From the NCBI GenBank assembly GCA_000182565.2, contig KQ257459.1: 64,000 nt of DNA; one strand, given 5' to 3'. The DNA comes from Spizellomyces punctatus DAOM BR117. Lineage: Eukaryota. Below the pieces are notes generated by a model. That model was not told where the DNA came from, searched no databases, and worked only from the letters and a program-made list of their open reading frames with translations. How positions within the stretch are numbered: the first letter of the stretch is position 1; each line of letters opens with the position of its first letter. The translations under genes and the position numbers were made by a program. Shown here in pieces: positions 2,192 through 36,187 of the stretch.

Positions 2192-2271
2192 AAAGTGATC
2201 TTGCCTTAGTGTATTGGCAATAACAACATAATACACCAGGGAATGAACCGGCGACAACCGGTTCGGAAAAG
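2192..2271 (-). ncRNA. Fanzor omegaRNA-like RNA (SpuFz1-type scaffold 2271-2207 plus ~15-nt guide 2206-2192)
   Basis: Minus strand reads CTTTTCC-GAACCGG TTGTCG CCGGTTC-ATTCCC-TGGTGTATT ATGTTGTTATTGCC AATACACTA then AGGCAAGATCACTTT. Two stems are directly visible (7 bp perfect; 9 bp with one G-U). It closely matches the SpuFz1 scaffold as I recall it (GUUUUCCGAGCCGGUUGUCGCGCGGUUCAAUCCCUGGUG...CACUA). Confidence 0.8.
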
Positions 2272-2332
2272 CCAAGTTACTCCCCCTTACTAGTAGCCAA
2301 CTACGACTAGGCCCAATTACACATGCAATACA

Positions 2333-2595
2333 TTACGGTTGTTCTAACCGGGTAACTAAGCCCACCACCACGAGAGAAATCCTACTAGGCCTTTGATTCC
2401 GAAATTCTTGAGTCGGAGGATGTTCAGATACTAGTAAAATCAGAATAATTAGACTGGGAATACACCTGGGAAAATACAAAAACAATGCATACCTGCGATC
2501 ATTGCAGCATAGTAGTAGCAGTGTTTGCAAGGGGTTATGTTGTTGTCGTTGTCGGGCGGACGAGGCCCTCGGCACCACCACATCGGCGTTCTCAT
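2333..2595 (-). CDS. Putative spliced 66-aa micro-ORF upstream of the omegaRNA
   Basis: ATG 2595; intron 2492-2431 (GTATGC...CTAAT...TAG); stop 2335-2333. Product MRTPMWWCRGPRPPDNDNNITPCKHCYYYAAMIAVSEHPPTQEFRNQRPSRISLVVVGLVTRLEQP. Confidence 0.3.
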
Positions 2596-2674
2596 GATTG
2601 ACTTGAGAGTTGCTTGAGGATGCTTCGAGAGTCGAGGGAAAAGAAACAAGATGGGGGGAGAGCAAATGCCCCCC

Positions 2675-2765
2675 TTTTATAGACCTTCAGCATGCGCTCC
2701 ACCGCAGTTTGGAGAAAGAAAAAACATTGGCATGCCACACCGCAGTTTGGAGAACATTAGCATGC
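2675..2765 (-). promoter_or_regulatory. Putative Pol II promoter of the omegaRNA cassette
   Basis: TATAAAA at 2681-2675 (minus), with a duplicated upstream motif CACCGCAGTTTGGAGAA (~2700 and ~2738) and AACATTRGCATGC twice. Confidence 0.45.
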
Positions 2766-4511
2766 ACCTCACCGCTGTCAGCGATGGGGGTGCTGATTAT
2801 GTCACTAAATGTGGTTAATTCGCACTGATCTTGCCTTATGTAACGCATGCGCAACTCGGGTCATATTACCTCTTTTGTCTAAATGAACAATTATTGCCAA
2901 TATTGGTTATATTGCTTTAACTTTACGGGCGGGGAAATTCACTATATAACTTGTTGCAAGCTCAACCTCTGAGCCATGCTCCGACCCCTCCGGCACTTGA
3001 AATTTAACAGCGTCCATGGTTGCCGACCTCAGCGCCGCTACTTGCAACATAGGTCGTTCCAGCTTGGTAGGTTGCTGCCATCGTCGCAGCCGTTGGGGTG
3101 CAGCAGGCGTTGGGGATCATCCTAGTTTTCATTTTGTAGCTGTAGCCGAATTTGCAGTTAGAATGGTTTGCAACGGCATTTGTTGCTCTAAATCCGTCTA
3201 CGCTCACCACCGCTGCGGCATGTGGAGGGTGACAACATTCAACCCCACAACCCTTAGCACATGGCCGATACAGACACAACGTTTAAATTCATTGTCTTTA
3301 GCGCAATGCACGCTTTGAAACACTCTTAAAATTTCCAGATCATATGCTAAAATGCGACCCAATTTTGCTGTCACCGCTTTACAGCAGTTTTTGCAAGAAA
3401 TATGCACAGTGAAGATCCACAGAATAATTTCAGATTGATATGCGGAGGCAAATGTACAGAAATGATCCGATGAATGCCTCTAAGAGATATGAATCAAAAG
3501 CTCTCTACGTTAGCATGCATGGTATGTCGACAAGGCAGTCAACAATCGTAAAAGAAAAGGCGAAATACAGTGGTATGTCTTCAATCGGCACATTTCCAGA
3601 TTATGGAAATCATGGACAACAATTACGCCAGTTGCCGTTTGTAGATGTGCCATGCCATTGCATGTAAATACCGTCATCACCGTCAACATGCCCCCAACCA
3701 TACACCTAACAGGTCCTCGTAGGGGTAGCTGCTACAAGTACTTTTTATACACGTGATTTCAAACTTCGCCTGACTATTGTATTTCTTGGGCTTTTACTTA
3801 TTAATGATTTTGCGTACACAACGCTATGGATCCAAAGACATGCCGCAGTCCGCACGATCGAAATCTGTCAGCAGAATATTAGTTGGAGATATCCAAAGCC
3901 ATTTTCTCAGATCTGCGTTTGATCTGCATTTCTCGTACAATGGGGAGTTGGTAACGTTCGTTGGGATGAACGTATTGACCGCCATGGTCTGCCGCATGCC
4001 GCATACATTTTCGACCTTGCGAACTTACCATGTGGCAAGGTTTGGAGACATCGCGTTAACTTGGATTTCGGCCGCAAGCGGCACTGACAAATTCAGGTGC
4101 AGAGATCTCCTCGTCCTGTTCGCAGTGCATTCTTCTTTGGTAGAGTAAGTGATCAATGGTTGGATATGTCTGAACGGTTTGTTCATTGGAAAGGTGTTCA
4201 CTGTCCGATTGTGACAACTCAACATCATCGATGCTGTGGATCTGCGACTGTAATGACTCCTTCTGCACCGATTATTGGATAATACTCTGCAAAAATGCCG
4301 ATTTGAAAGGTCGGGGATCTGTTGGGCTTTTCTTGACATGCCGCATTCTGGAGGCGGGTGCTACTACCCTGAAGCAGAACGCAAATGACAGCAAGTTTTG
4401 CAATTCTGCTCACGGTGAATATAAAAGAACGCCGGGCGAGTCACCCTACTTGAATAAATCATCCTCCAACTGCAACGTCTACCACTCATCTTAAAGCCAA
4501 TAAGCTATCAA

Positions 4512-26286: not shown

Positions 26287-26404
26287 GTGCAGATTAGTTG
26301 AGAGTATCACGTGAATCACGTGATGGTCTGCCAATCTATACCCAGTTGGGATGTCCATTCTAGACCACCACATGACTCACGTGATACTCTCTACTAATCT
26401 GCAC
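26287..26404. mobile_element. Small MITE-like foldback (~118 bp, ~43-bp imperfect TIRs)
   Basis: GTGCAGATTAGTTGAGAGTATCACGTGAATCACGTGATGGTCT … AGACCACCACATGACTCACGTGATACTCTCTACTAATCTGCAC. Absent from the paralogous site near 28410. Confidence 0.65.
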
Positions 26405-26420
26405 ATGTTGTACCTAAGGT

Positions 26421-26917
26421 ACTGTGCCACGTTCCTATTAGTGGGGAATGGATGGATTGTACAATTACCTAAGCGGGATGGGTTGTACAACTACCTTGTA
26501 CTGTGCCACGTTCCTATTGGTGGAGAGTGGGTGGATTGTACAATTACCTTGTACGGTGCCACGTTCCTATTGGTGGAGAGTGGGTGGGTTGTACAATTAC
26601 CTTTAACTGTGCCACGTTCCTATTGGTGGAGAGTGGGTGGATTGTACAATTACCTTGTACGGTGCCACGTTCCTATTGGTGGGTGGGTGGATTGTACAAG
26701 TACCTAATATAAGTACTGTGCCACGTTTCTATTGGTGGAGAGTAGACACCAATGACACGTCAGACCAGAAGTTCCGCCCATTATAAAAGAGCGCATCCCT
26801 CTCGCGTTTCCCCCTTCCTTTATCGCGTTCATTCCAGCTTTCGCTGTTGCCTCTTCACCTGCGCAACACCTGCTTTCGCAACACCTGCTTTCGCAACACC
26901 TGCTTTCGCATCACCTG
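26421..26917 (+). repeat. Repeat family X copy A (tandem GTGCCACGTTCCTATTGGTGGAGAG units, TGACACGTCA, TATAAAA, then 15-bp tandem array into the gap)
   Basis: Six upstream units; TATAAAA 26782-26788; array CACCTGCTTTCGCAA. Homologous to 28660-28955, 33178-34207 and 34850-35733. Confidence 0.85.
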
Positions 26918-27481
26918 NNNNNNNNNNNNNNNNNNNNNNNNNNNNNNNNNNNNNNNNNNNNNNNNNNNNNNNNNNNNNNNNNNNNNNNNNNNNNNNNNNN
27001 NNNNNNNNNNNNNNNNNNNNNNNNNNNNNNNNNNNNNNNNNNNNNNNNNNNNNNNNNNNNNNNNNNNNNNNNNNNNNNNNNNNNNNNNNNNNNNNNNNNN
27101 NNNNNNNNNNNNNNNNNNNNNNNNNNNNNNNNNNNNNNNNNNNNNNNNNNNNNNNNNNNNNNNNNNNNNNNNNNNNNNNNNNNNNNNNNNNNNNNNNNNN
27201 NNNNNNNNNNNNNNNNNNNNNNNNNNNNNNNNNNNNNNNNNNNNNNNNNNNNNNNNNNNNNNNNNNNNNNNNNNNNNNNNNNNNNNNNNNNNNNNNNNNN
27301 NNNNNNNNNNNNNNNNNNNNNNNNNNNNNNNNNNNNNNNNNNNNNNNNNNNNNNNNNNNNNNNNNNNNNNNNNNNNNNNNNNNNNNNNNNNNNNNNNNNN
27401 NNNNNNNNNNNNNNNNNNNNNNNNNNNNNNNNNNNNNNNNNNNNNNNNNNNNNNNNNNNNNNNNNNNNNNNNNNNNNNNNN
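26918..27481. other. Assembly gap (N run), likely a collapsed tandem array
   Basis: Run of Ns starting inside a tandem repeat. Confidence 0.95.
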
Positions 27482-27491
27482 TCGTAGTATA

Positions 27492-28470
27492 GGCGGGATC
27501 CCACATGGCTAAGTTTGTCGATAAATTTTAACATCATTCATGGTGTTTCCTCTACTTTAATACATATCAAAAACCAGTTTAACATGCATCGGATAATAAT
27601 TTCTGTATATGTACTTTGTCACATACCCGGCCATGTCCCATCTTATAATACAATAGAAAATGTTCCAGCCCCGTGACCGGGTGCTCCCCATTTTAGGGGA
27701 CCGTCGTAATCTCACATGAATAAATGCGTCGATAAATGATTTGACATCAGCCTTGACGCCGGCTTATCCACGCTGATCATCGACGCAGTTGTCCTCTACT
27801 TTTCTGTGCACTATAGACTAGTTTCACATGCTTTAAAAATACAAAAAGAAGTGGGGTATATTCTATCCATCGGATAATAATTCTGTATATTTACTCTGTA
27901 ACATACCCGACAATATTTGTTGTTCTAGCCTAAAGGAAATCGGTGCAATTGTGGGCCATGACCAATTGAGATTTTGGAGGTTATACTCGATTTATGGGAT
28001 GCGTCTGATCATGTGAGATCTTATTGGGGAGTACCCCCGTGACCCGTTGCTTGATTTGCTGTCACATGACCACATGCACAATGATGTGATATGCATCGCA
28101 AAACGTCTGGCCCACTTTCCGTTGCTCTATCTGCTTGATTTTTCTCATCAGGATTAAAGCATCTTTTTTGCCACAACATACTGAACGTCCATTCCAAATT
28201 ACTGTCCCCTTATGGCTATTAACTGTATAGCAATTACCCAGCCCAGTGATCTTCTTCTGCCGCCAGCAATTGAGCCCCAAGTTGTATCTTGCAGTAGTTT
28301 GAAAATACAGAGTGAAAATAAAGATCTTTACCGGGATATATACATCATATAGTATATAGCAAAGGCTTCCGTACTGTAGCGGCTTTCTGTCTTTTTTTTT
28401 GATATCTGTCAAGTGCGCTGCACCTACGAGCTCACACACTAGACGCGTCTGAGCATGTGGGATCACGCCA
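27492..28470. mobile_element. Nested/degenerate copies of the MITE family seen at 34217-34530
   Basis: Left end GGCGGGATCCCACATG (27492), right end CATGTGGGATCACGCCA (28470). Inner copy ~27703-28020 shares GTCGATAAATGATTT and AAAGGAAATCGG…GTTATACT…GCGTCTGATCA with 34300-34525. Confidence 0.65.
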
Positions 28471-28505
28471 CAACCCTACTGTAGCACTCCACCACTGTTT
28501 TATGA

Positions 28506-28620
28506 CACACTGCAACTGAGATTGCAACCAAGCCCTTAACGTGACTGCAAAAGCAGAGGACAGTGACTGCGCACACTTAATTGAGTAATGCATTAGAATT
28601 TCATATTAGGGTGCCCGGCG
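28506..28620 (+). repeat. ~110-bp dispersed repeat, second copy at ~30009-30130
   Basis: CACACTGCAASTGAGATTGCAACCA…TTAACGTGACT…CAGTGA…TAATGCATT…GTGCCCGG in both copies. Confidence 0.7.
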
Positions 28621-28659
28621 CTCTGCTACTACTACTACTACTAGTCAATTACCGAATTG

Positions 28660-28955
28660 ACTGTGCCACGCTCCTATTGGTGGAGAGTGGACACCAATGA
28701 CACGTCAGATCGGATTTCCCCCATTATAAAAGAGCGCATCCCTCTCGCGTCTCCCCCATTCCTTCACGTTCATTCCTGCTTTCGCTGTTGCTGAAAGTAG
28801 AGGTGCGAAAGCCGGTGATGCAAAAGCAAGTGCCGCAAAGCGAGTCATGCCATAGGCGAGAGACGTTTCGCATCACTTGCTTTTGCATCACTCGCCTTTG
28901 GCGCTCTATTGCTACTACGACTACCTCTCTGTCGCGCTGTACTACTACTACTTGC
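28660..28955 (+). repeat. Repeat family X copy B (single upstream unit; internal 18-bp inverted repeat)
   Basis: TATAAAA 28725-28731, GAGCGCATCCCTCTCGCG leader, inverted repeat GTGATGCAAAAGCAAGTG/CACTTGCTTTTGCATCAC, and a (CTA)n tail. Confidence 0.8.
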
Positions 28956-32932: not shown

Positions 32933-33177
32933 ATTATCATACTTGAAGCAATGATAATAGGACAGAGTTCAAGGGACTGGTCAAAGGGCAGGTTTTGGGA
33001 ACGTTTTAAAAGACTCTTTACATGTATTACATCCATCAATAGTACAAATGCAACTGATATATTGGGTCGGATTATCCCAAAGTCCCGCATCAATTATTTA
33101 CACTGATACAATATACATGAGTGGTGAACTTCTTCCAAAGTCCCACTTCAATTTATTACACTCTGCAGTATACATGA

Positions 33178-34207
33178 AGCAGTAGTAGTAGTAGTAGTAG
33201 TTTATTCGGGCGCGACAGCGAAGTAGTAGTAGTAGTAGTAGAAGTGATGCCAGAGGCGAGACGCAAAAGCGAGTGATGCAAAGCAAAAGTGATGCCAGAG
33301 GCGAGACGCAAAAGCGAGTGATGCAAAGCAAAAGTAATGCCAGAGGCGAGACGCAAAAGCGAGTGATGCAAAGCAAAAGTAATGCCAGAGGCGAGACGCA
33401 AAAGCGAGTGATGCAAAGCAAAAGTAATGCCAGAGGCGAGACGCACAGCGGAAGATGCCAGAGGCGAGACGCACAGCGGGAGATGCCAGAGGCGAGACGC
33501 AAAAGCGAGTGATGCAAAGCAAAAGTAATGCCAGAGGCGAGACGCAAAAGCGAGTGATGCAAAGCAAAAGTAATGCCAGAGGCGAGACGCAAAAGCGAGT
33601 GATGCAAAGCAAAAGTAATGCCAGAGGCGAGACGCAAAAGCGAGTGGGAGATGCCAGAGGCGAGACGCAACAGCGAGAGACGCAACAGCGGGAGATGCCA
33701 GAGGCGAGACGCAACAGCGAGAGACGCAACAGCGGGAGATGCCAGAGGCGAGACGCAAAAGCGAGAGACGCACAGCGGGAGATGCCAGAGGCGAGACGCA
33801 CAGCGAGAAATGCCAGAGGCGAGACGCAACAGCGGGAGATGCCAGAGGCGAGACGCAAAAGCGAGAGACGGAAAAGACGACGGCGGGTGCGCGATCTTCT
33901 TCGCTGTTGCCTCTCCTTTTGGCGAAGAAGAGGCAACAGCGAAAGCTGGAATGAACGCGATAAAGGATTGGGGGGAAACGCGAGAGGGATGCGCTCTTTT
34001 ATAGAGGAGGATTTTCTGGTCTGACGTGTCATTGTGTCTGCTCTCCACCAATAGGAACGTGGCACAGTACTGATATTAGGTAATTGGCAAATCCACCCAC
34101 TCTCCACCAATAGGAACGTGGCACAGTACAAGGTAATTGTACAACCCATCCACTTAGGTAATTGTACAATCCACCCACTCTCCACCAATAGGAACGTGGC
34201 ACAGCAC
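33178..34207 (-). repeat. Repeat family X copy C: upstream units, TATA, hairpin, 45-bp and shorter tandem arrays, AATAAA+(CTA)n
   Basis: TATAAAA 34003-33997; 15-bp perfect stem 33900-33914/33929-33943; 45-bp unit GTRATGCCAGAGGCGAGACGCAAAAGCGAGTGATGCAAAGCAAAA; AATAAA 33206-33201. Confidence 0.9.
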
Positions 34208-34216
34208 ATTAGGTAA

Positions 34217-34530
34217 TGGCGTGATCCCACATGATCAGATACATCCCATAAATCAAGTACAACGGGTACTCCCCAAAATAACGTACTGTCGCATGACCAG
34301 ACGCGTCGATAAATGATTTAACATCGGACTTGACGCGGAAAGTCTAAGATCAGCATTGACTCTGTTTTCCTCTACTTTTCTACATATTAAAAACTAGTTT
34401 AACATGCATACCCTGCAATATTTGTGAAAATTGTCAAAAGGAAATCGGTCTAAGTGTTGGCCGTGTCCAATTAAGGTTTGGGGGGTTATACTTGATTTAT
34501 GGACGCGTCTGATCAGGTGGGATCACGCCA
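34217..34530. mobile_element. MITE (~314 bp, ~46-bp imperfect TIRs, possible TA target duplication)
   Basis: TGGCGTGATCCCACATGATCAGATACATCCCATAAATCAAGTACAAC … GTTATACTTGATTTATGGACGCGTCTGATCAGGTGGGATCACGCCA; TA one base outside each end. Confidence 0.75.
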
Positions 34531-34849
34531 GTACAACGAGTATCGAATATATGATGGGACAGATCACAGCAGAAACAAATGCGTTAAACCAGGTTTGATG
34601 GCATGGCCATACCGCCTTAGCAATTGCTATGAAATAGTGCGTTGAATGAATGCAACCACAACGAACCCACAATGGAAGAAAGTACAAAATATTAAATTCA
34701 AACCGCTGTATTAACCGCTGTTTGGTGTCCCATCATACTCGACACAGTACTACGGAGTGGCGTTGAGAAACGACCCTCGTAACCCCCGTGACCCCACGTG
34801 ACCCAAATCCAGAACACTGTCACGTGTGGTGCGAAAGCAAGTGATGGAG

Positions 34850-34966
34850 TAGTAGTAGTAGTTTATTTGGGCGCGACAGCGAAGAAGTAGTAGTAGTAGT
34901 AGTAGAGCGCGACAGCGAAGAAGTACTAGTAGTAGTAGTAGTAGTAGTAGTAGAGCGCGACAGCGA

Positions 34967-34998
<32 letters not shown>

Positions 34999-35011
34999 AG
35001 CGCGACAGCGA

Positions 35012-35043
<32 letters not shown>

Positions 35044-35059
35044 GAGAGCGCGACAGCGA

Positions 35060-35124
<65 letters not shown>

Positions 35125-35137
35125 AGCGCGACAGCGA

Positions 35138-35181
<44 letters not shown>

Positions 35182-35733
35182 AGTAGTAGAAGTGATGCCA
35201 AAGGCGGTGATGCAAAGCAAGAAGTAGTAGTAGTAGTAGTAGAGTAGTAGAAGTGATGCCAAAGGCGGTGATGCAAAGCAGATGACGCAAAGCGAGTGAT
35301 GCCAAAGGCGGTGATGCAAAGCAAGAAGTAGTAGTAGTAGTAGTAGTAGTAGAAGAGATGCCAAAGGCGGTGATGCAAAGCAGATGACGCAAAGCGAGTG
35401 ATGCCAAAGGCGGTGATGCAAAGCAAGTAGTAGTAGTAGTGATGCCAGAGGCGAGACGCAAAAGCGAGTGATGCAAAGGAAAAGTGATGCCAGAGGCGAG
35501 ACGCAAAAGCGAGAGACGCAACAGCGAGAGACGGAAAAGACGACGGCGGGTGCGCGATCCTCTTTGCTGTTGCCTCTCCTTTTGGCGAAGAAGAGGCAAC
35601 AGCGAAAGCTGGAATGAACGCGATAAAGGATTGGGGGGAAACGCGAGAGGGATGCGCTCTTTTATAATGGGGCGATCTGGTCTGACGTGTCTTTGGGTGT
35701 CTACTCTCTCCACCAATAGGAACGTGGCACAGT
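34850..35733 (-). repeat. Repeat family X copy D with GCGCGACAGCGAAGAAG units separated by variable (TAG)n
   Basis: TATAAAA 35666-35660; hairpin ~35565-35605; six GCGCGACAGCGAAGAAG units at 34870-35142; AATAAA 34867-34862. Confidence 0.9.
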
Positions 35734-36187
35734 CAATTCGGTAATTGTACAACCCATGCAGCATTTGTACAACCGTGTGTGTGCACTGGATTGGTTCGAA
35801 CGTTGGAAACTAATGCTTTTGGTCTGAAGATACCACTTATATATTTACATTTGTACGGTATACACATGACAGACACATTATCAATATCTTCAACTTTAAA
35901 CATCACGAAGAAGATATCGTCAAGGTCCAGTGTGGAACTTCTCGTTTATGTATTGCGGGTTTTTTTGATATCTGGACCTGCATACTTGTACTTTAGTAGT
36001 AGTCCTTGCAGCCCATGTAAGGCACATGTGTATGGCTACATCTGCCACAACCCTTTTGACGAAATAATACTTGTTTATTGCTGATACTGTACTTGTTTTT
36101 TCTTGACTTCCCGCCTGGATCTTCCATCCTACCTAATTCCCTACTCAAAAAGTCTACGTACTCGATAAACTCTACATACTCAGATTC

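Follow-up and report, generated by a model that had tools for sequence, protein, structure and literature searches.

We analysed a 64,000-nucleotide (nt) stretch of Spizellomyces punctatus DAOM BR117 (assembly GCA_000182565.2, contig KQ257459.1), referred to here as the window, and focused on positions 2192-2271, whose minus strand resembles the guide RNA (omegaRNA) of the Fanzor nuclease SpuFz1. With a probability that we put at about 0.85, this locus, an omegaRNA scaffold followed by a 15-nt guide, forms the right end of a non-autonomous ghost Spu-1 element that spans about 600 nt at roughly 2807-2207 on the minus strand. An earlier note, made from the sequence, had described the locus as a stand-alone omegaRNA variant with no Fanzor open reading frame (ORF); rather than standing alone, it forms the last part of an element whose family counts tens to hundreds of copies and is transcribed at high level.

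Elements of this kind have been described before. According to Saito 2023 (PMC10432273), S. punctatus holds 134 loci of the ghost Spu-1 kind in addition to 42 Fanzor loci, so the statement in the earlier note that protein-less ghost loci are known was right. In the text of that article, a ghost locus lacks a Fanzor ORF and consists of ~550 conserved nt bounded by 30-nt inverted repeats, the left of which has CA upstream of it. The omegaRNA is given as a 75-nt scaffold extending over the right inverted repeat, followed by 14-15 nt of variable flank that serve as the guide; SpuFz1 has CATA as its target-adjacent motif (TAM) and cuts 16-21 nt from the TAM. Ghost scaffolds with different stem 2 are also reported there, four of them functional in human cells, together with the observation that distal stem 2 (C40-G70) makes no protein contact and is non-essential, trimming of which led to a 52-nt scaffold. 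Stem-loop 1 is described as seven base pairs (Xu 2024, PMC11423790), and SPu-1 elements as having putative TA target-site duplications (Bao & Jurka 2013, PMC3627910). Finally, a 2026 paper (PMC13434818) reports 126 unique ghost scaffolds of 74-76 nt after removal of duplicates and "incomplete" sequences, the testing in HEK293T cells of representatives of each major clade, and the engineering of a 75-nt scaffold.

Numbering the minus strand from C2271 as position 1, the 80 nt at 2271-2192 divide into a 65-nt scaffold (2271-2207) and a 15-nt guide (2206-2192). The scaffold consists of the leader CUUUUCC (positions 1-7, 2271-2265), stem-loop 1 (2264-2245; G8-G14 with C21-C27 around loop U15-G20), the linker AUUCCC (positions 28-33, 2244-2239) and stem 2 (2238-2207; U34-U42 with A57-A65), which has the terminal TA (2208-2207) at its end. 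Both stems are as the earlier note described them: all seven pairs of stem-loop 1 and all nine of stem 2 are standard, one of the latter being G-U, and the next position inside stem 2, A43/C56, is a mismatch. Folding energies were compared with those of dinucleotide shuffles (n=200). The 80-nt span folds at -22.9 kcal/mol (z -3.27; 1/200 shuffles equal or better) and the 66 nt at 2206-2271 at -20.8 kcal/mol (z -4.41; 0/200); the values for 75 nt and 90 nt are z -3.70 (0/200) and z -2.41 (4/200). Extension to 149 nt, including 60 nt of upstream context, lets the score drop to z -0.87 (36/200), which confines the signal to the two hairpins. The 24-nt string of stem-loop 1 occurs a single time in the window when up to 3 mismatches are allowed, and in 0/100 shuffles.

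The putative guide, AGGCAAGATCACTTT in DNA letters (2206-2192, minus strand), is the flank directly 3′ of the terminal TA, and genomic read depth is single-copy everywhere below 2220, the guide stretch included. The boundary between scaffold and guide would accordingly fall at 2207/2206. Searches for other identities or relatives returned little. ARAGORN found no tRNA or tmRNA in the window, and blastn of 2150-2950 found no further copies of the element in it, only matches of 12-18 nt. A metagenome scan for the stem-loop-1 pattern gave at least 120 loci, all attributable to chance among the matches listed, with a best local score of 39 against a self score of 362; the 24-nt and 21-nt strings of stem-loop 1 had no exact match in the papers searched. 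The covariance-model check that the earlier note had proposed was run in the form of Rfam 15, which gave 0 matches across the window at gathering thresholds, a result that is uninformative since it is uncertain whether Rfam models SpuFz1-type omegaRNA. At E up to 10 within 1700-2800, Rfam gave only two chance-level matches, both elsewhere and on the plus strand.

To describe the element we placed public reads on 1850-2950 at 80% likeness or more, so that the reads are pooled from all paralogues. With 38-nt genomic reads from a chromatin immunoprecipitation (ChIP) library (X19), depth per strand is 0-3 over 1850-2219, 114-755 over 2220-2626, about 8 over 2627-2663, a stretch that is unalignable even for DNA reads, 86-338 over 2664-2774 and 0-4 over 2775-2950. 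Within the last interval, depth is 3.8/3.7 at 2775-2811 and the DNA at 2812-2950 is single-copy. The repeat thus exceeds its flanks about 200-fold, a ratio that is not a copy number because the library is ChIP; the family counts tens to hundreds of copies. Assembled contigs (X1) agree, with a summed depth of 24-164 over the repeat bins against 2.9 in the flank, and one of them (1,456 nt) passes from unique sequence into the repeat at 2801. Together these depth patterns identify the hairpins as the last part of a multi-copy repeat of ~550-600 nt, a size that fits the "around 550 nt" given for the ghost region in Saito 2023.

The element body is an ORF-less high-copy repeat at 2805-2209 on the minus strand, reading GTG...CAC between two TA dinucleotides, with an approximate left limit. 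Its right end is CAC-TA (2211-2207). The probable but weakly supported left end, TA (2807-2806) followed by GTG (2805-2803), mirrors the right end, lies close to the point at 2801 where the X1 contig enters the repeat, and places the two TA ~601 nt apart. TAGTG...CACTA are the only termini that can be recognised, and the terminal TA is in keeping with the TA target-site duplications of SPu-1. When the right end was compared in reverse complement, the strongest match was a 12-mer at 2902-2891 (shuffle p 0.033); candidates for a left inverted repeat around 2835 and 2804 fall short of what shuffles give on average (best near the left end 16, shuffle mean 17.4). There is no adjoining Fanzor gene, as the earlier note had said: the minus strand at 2272-4400 holds no ATG-initiated ORF longer than 104 amino acids (aa). 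More widely, no Fanzor or TnpB family was found in the 10 ORFs scanned (the window has 57 ORFs of at least 150 aa), among which the domains were PPR, RA/PH, F-box/SPRY, ABC, RhoGEF, LRR and NUDIX.

Family RNA comes from the minus strand, is spliced, and stops at the element's right end. In a library of long rather than small RNA (X18, first mates up to 60 nt), depth over 2220-2626 is 3,676-55,478, in one orientation, and falls to 202.6 in 2183-2219, 0.08 in 2146-2182 and 0 in 1850-2145. The family transcript has a GT-AG intron of 62 nt (2492-2431, minus strand), recognised by a read joint and by a dip in RNA depth. The joint 2430->2493, CT..AC on the plus strand and GT..AG on the minus strand, is carried by 119 reads with 14 starts, and the intron bin 2442-2478 has an RNA depth of 7 versus 3,800 and 21,462 in the adjoining bins. 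DNA depth across the same bin is 196/188, so the dip reflects splicing and not alignment failure. Loose read ends at 2432 (12,052 reads) and 2424 (11,972) run on into apparent exon-1 letters, and 15 of the 16 first letters at 2432 agree with exon 1 of the window. The intron is removed from nearly all family RNA, and exon 2 is read 3-15 times as deeply as exon 1.

A likely promoter element, TATAAAAG, stands at 2681-2674 on the minus strand. Minus-sense RNA is visible only downstream of it, from 2626 down, below the unalignable stretch 2627-2663; the start would lie downstream of the promoter element. The ghost family may therefore be made at high level as a TATA-driven, spliced precursor with a 3′ omegaRNA, which is possibly new: we found no mention of ghost-family splicing or a TATA box in the main texts of Saito 2023 or PMC13434818, whose supplements may bear on it, and none of the 10 papers listed, out of 286, in a literature search dealt with the subject. 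A coding role of the transcript was considered and is unlikely, given the 1-nt and 4-nt indels that separate expressed paralogues within exon 2 (15,092/39,357 reads at 2368, 12,017/32,848 at 2410 and 2,666/42,210 at 2393). A further run (X23) yielded only 2 contigs touching 2550-2602, flanked on both sides by unlike sequence.

Three side observations concern the same region. Upstream of the TATA box, at 2664-2737, RNA of the opposite orientation is seen (depth 240 and 35 versus 2.7 and 0), representing divergent or antisense transcription of the left part of the family. Paralogues carry an A-run near 2710-2724, where the copy studied here has a short A-rich stretch. Within the intron, 2472-2459 is a 14-nt near copy (13/14) of the linker and the 5′ arm of stem 2, TTCCCWGGTGTATT on the minus strand, and may be the vestige of an internal duplication.

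At this transcribed repeat end, 15 of the 18 scaffold nucleotides named in the text of Saito 2023 agree with the 2192-2271 copy, in line with the SpuFz1-type assignment of the earlier note. With position 1 at C2271, U5, C6, C7, U16, G17, U18, C19 and G20 agree directly; the leader thus reads U, C, C at positions 5-7 and the loop has G at position 20, so that C6 lies opposite G20. One extra canonical nucleotide after G20 brings A29, C32, C34, U35 and G37 into agreement, all five being supplied by the linker AUUCCC followed by U34 and G36, and nine further canonical nucleotides at the stem-2 tip do the same for A72 and A75. A free scan of a 181-nt region over all registers chose 2271 as position 1 unaided. 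For the 5′ letters, the 13/15 reached at 2271 is the best of 127,910 registers in the whole window, a position test that owes its weight to the register falling on a 7-bp hairpin at the end of a transcribed repeat.

Four considerations lead us to prefer the register with one and nine extra canonical nucleotides (+1/+9). The U35-A75 pair that we infer for the canonical scaffold, whose linker is published as ending at C34 and whose last nucleotide A75 adjoins the guide, then matches U34-A65 here; the last two scaffold letters are the TA that an SPu-1 terminus should have; 546 of the 830 family RNA reads crossing 2222 have exactly 9 extra letters behind that position; and 65 + 9 = 74 nt falls inside the published 74-76 nt. 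The 65-nt length with a shortened stem 2, already remarked on in the earlier note, therefore arises because 9 nt are absent at the stem-2 tip relative to most family members; the effect of these 9 letters on pairing in the family was judged by eye.

The comparison with the family reads covers the best-supported differences, beyond which there are 96 more, and two of those covered concern the stems. Position 27 is C here and U in the family majority (909/1,313 DNA reads; 33,898/44,480 RNA reads), a one-sided change that yields G-C in place of the family G-U. At position 43 this copy has A where the family majority has G (128/137 DNA reads; 12,934/13,345 RNA reads), and since G43 would pair with C56, the copy has lost one pair. 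The canonical C40/G70 correspond to U39-A60, which pair, and this would amount to one compensatory change if canonical C40 and G70 pair with each other. The argument of the earlier note that covarying stems imply selection is not supported by these comparisons: one change is one-sided, the other breaks a pair, and the single compensatory candidate depends on the register and on two named nucleotides.

There are hints that the 2192-2271 copy or near-twins of it are transcribed, in reads that are not unique to the locus. At three positions where this copy differs from nearly all paralogues, the family letter is missing from some reads: at 2229 from at most 411/13,345 RNA reads and 9/137 DNA reads, at 2566 from 165/6,937 RNA and 8/948 DNA reads, and at 2296 from 48/3,702 RNA and 1/207 DNA reads, the last being near error level. 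No 38-nt DNA read spans 2183-2219 (depth 0.41/0.16), as expected if hardly any paralogue has the deletion; coverage there is thin.

From these elements a mechanism can be proposed. At family level, the ghost element has its own likely TATA box, is transcribed along the minus strand and loses the 62-nt intron. The last 65 nt of the transcript would fold into a SpuFz1-type scaffold of leader, 7-bp stem-loop 1, 6-nt linker and stem 2, and transcription would cross the terminal TA into ~15 nt of flank, providing the guide. Presumably after processing to a small RNA, the scaffold would be bound by a Fanzor1 nuclease encoded elsewhere in the genome, which would cut CATA-flanked DNA matching the guide; loading and activity of this particular copy would follow the same path.

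What lies at 2192-2271 is the ordinary right end of an already published element class. Like the ghost Spu-1 elements described in PMC10432273 and PMC13434818, the element is ORF-less, ~550 nt plus ends and high in copy, with a right-end scaffold that is read on into the flank, a locus that lacks a Fanzor gene, a non-canonical stem 2 and presumed use in trans by SpuFz1. It departs from them in its 65-nt scaffold, against 74-76 nt, the result of the 9-nt deletion at the stem-2 tip, and in having neither a left inverted repeat nor a CA/TAM junction that can be recognised. With the canonical SpuFz1 omegaRNA (75-nt scaffold and 15-nt guide; cryo-electron microscopy structure 8GKH), as it is described in those texts, the copy shares the U5-C6-C7 leader, C6 opposite G20, the 7-bp stem-loop 1, the loop U16-G20, an AUUCCC-type linker, a stem 2 that has U and G at its base, a scaffold 3′ end of A..A, and a fold that needs no pseudoknot. 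The canonical RNA has, unlike this one, one more nucleotide after G20 (in the chosen register), G22 where C stands here and C40/G70 in place of U39-A60, and it lies downstream of a 638-aa Fanzor ORF.

Engineered short scaffolds (52-nt, Saito 2023; gst28.m2, 2026) are likewise reported to be shortened at the protein-distal tip of stem 2 with leader, stem-loop 1, linker and stem-2 base kept; they are 52 nt long or optimised at 75 nt, whereas the 2192-2271 scaffold is natural and has only 9 nt removed. The suggestion of the earlier note that a compact natural scaffold would be worth testing for genome editing has, as far as these papers go, been superseded by the 52-nt trimmed scaffold of 2023 and the 126 ghost scaffolds collated in 2026. 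The TnpB omegaRNA of IS200/IS605 elements (e.g. ISDra2) resembles the ghost RNA in right-end transcription, use of the flank as guide, a TAM in the left flank and presumed cutting of the empty site. It differs in that the SpuFz1-type RNA, according to PMC10432273, has no pseudoknot, the ghost element has inverted repeats and TA duplications, and the ghost-family RNA is spliced and probably TATA-driven, which are eukaryotic features.

Several observations weigh against the assignment to a ghost Spu-1 right end. The sequence comparison covers the 18 scaffold nucleotides named in the text of Saito 2023 and is not a full alignment; G22, C40 and G70 are not matched, G22 being C here in either register. 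The best score of the free scan is 16/18, obtained with +1/+1 for three 3′ letters, and 1/300 shuffles reaches 16; twelve other registers in the window reach 12/15, so that the position test is weak alone. At 65 nt the copy is outside the 74-76 nt range reported in PMC13434818, even if its scaffold still abuts the flank directly. This copy shows no recognisable 30-nt inverted repeat, and the left junction is TTTA, not CATA, which occurs 31 nt further out. As to the RNA, pooled paralogue reads (at least 80% likeness) cannot prove expression of the 2192-2271 copy, the long-RNA library by its nature shows no ~80-nt species, and the depth of 202.6 in 2183-2219 is explicable by coverage of 2207-2219 alone, with none over the guide.

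Some of these points would also suit a subterminal hairpin of an unrelated short DNA transposon, whose likeness to the SpuFz1 omegaRNA would be coincidental: the position test is not decisive alone, the likeness is known from nucleotides named in a text and not from direct alignment, and Rfam gave no match. We regard this as very unlikely, since the coincidence would have to include the best register of the window at the 3′ end of the abundant transcript from an ORF-less, high-copy element of ~550 nt, a stem-loop 1 of 7 bp, C6 and G20 positioned for pairing, agreement of five loop letters in a row (U16-G20), and a 6-nt A...C linker with a stem 2 that abuts the flank and ends in TA. Still less credible, to the point of being nearly negligible, is the idea that the hairpins serve the downstream gene, whose ATG is at 2163, as a structure of its 5′ untranslated region or promoter and are unrelated to guide RNAs. 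Their position 44-108 nt upstream of a same-strand ATG speaks for it; but the hairpins belong to a repeat of ~200-fold read depth and the gene is single-copy, the RNA ends before the gene is reached (0.08 in 2146-2182, 0 in 1850-2145), and the downstream ORF at 1362-1970 has no Pfam family.

A different question is whether the copy is alive. It may share the identity proposed here and be a dead relic, an immobile and decayed ghost whose RNA is unmade or unusable and whose hairpins persist only through youth; this concerns activity rather than identity, overlaps with the ghost-element assignment, and seems to us possible if somewhat doubtful. The 9-nt deletion in stem 2, the A43/C56 mismatch where 128/137 DNA reads have the pairing G, the unrecognisable left inverted repeat (16 versus a shuffle mean of 17.4), the TTTA junction in place of a strict CATA TAM, and RNA reads that are not specific to this copy are all what a relic would show, and the DNA depth of 3.8/3.7 at 2775-2811 means that the left terminus has diverged from the family. 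Yet the protein-contacting parts (leader, stem-loop 1, linker and stem-2 base) are intact, the deletion lies within the stem-2 tip reported as dispensable in Saito 2023 (PMC10432273), and a guide RNA acting in trans needs no mobile element. The proportions of non-family letters in RNA and DNA at 2229, 2296 and 2566 also argue, weakly, that transcription per copy is like that of the family.

The left border of the ghost element holds a further feature. At 2840-2826 on the minus strand, in single-copy DNA that lies 18 nt beyond the left TA, CATA precedes 11 nt that repeat the opening letters of the guide exactly (12/15 overall). This creates an exact 13-nt direct repeat between 2838-2826 and 2208-2196; of its copies, the one on the right is made up of the terminal TA and the 11 opening guide nt, and the one on the left has CA before it. 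The window has 403 CATA sites, and at no other does a guide-prefix match exceed 5 nt; the 11-nt prefix match appears only if the guide starts at 2206. The repeat may have pre-existed locally in the target DNA, may be a long duplication made at insertion, or may be the scar of guided cutting after imprecise repair. One could go further and see in ghost elements self-contained eukaryotic guide-RNA genes, with TATA promoter, intron and 3′ omegaRNA, and in the left copy of the repeat the remnant of an empty site that Fanzor had cut and that was then mended by an imprecise copy of the element; we think this reading unlikely.

Outside the element, the next minus-strand ORF (1918-2163) has its ATG at 2163-2161, 44 nt beyond the element, and is a neighbour and not part of it. 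The minus strand at 1362-2163 reads 81 aa from this ATG and then a 202-aa open frame, with no Pfam family and no RNA in the X18 library. Further into the window, 26400-28950 and 33100-35800 are inverted paralogous modules that contain 53-nt tandem repeats with CCACGTTCCTATTGGTGG, then TATAAAAG, then tandem arrays of 15 nt, 45 nt and AGT triplets. Their appearance is that of clustered repeat-protein genes in opposite orientations whose promoter modules are repeated, and this may explain the assembly gap there. An apparent set of "six open frames" at 26746-27537 was discarded as an artefact of this gap, an N-run at 26918-27481.

As a discovery the locus adds little: going by the papers cited, ghost omegaRNA loci were described in 2023, editing work in 2026 drew on the natural scaffolds, and engineered ones of shorter length are available. 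For the family, the 2192-2271 copy is a natural example of a stem-2 tip tolerating the loss of 9 nt, and the spliced precursor may be connected with the benefit that published work ascribes to long 5′ extensions. If the unlikely homing interpretation of its left border were true, the repeat found there would be a trace, left in nature, of homing driven by Fanzor in a eukaryote.

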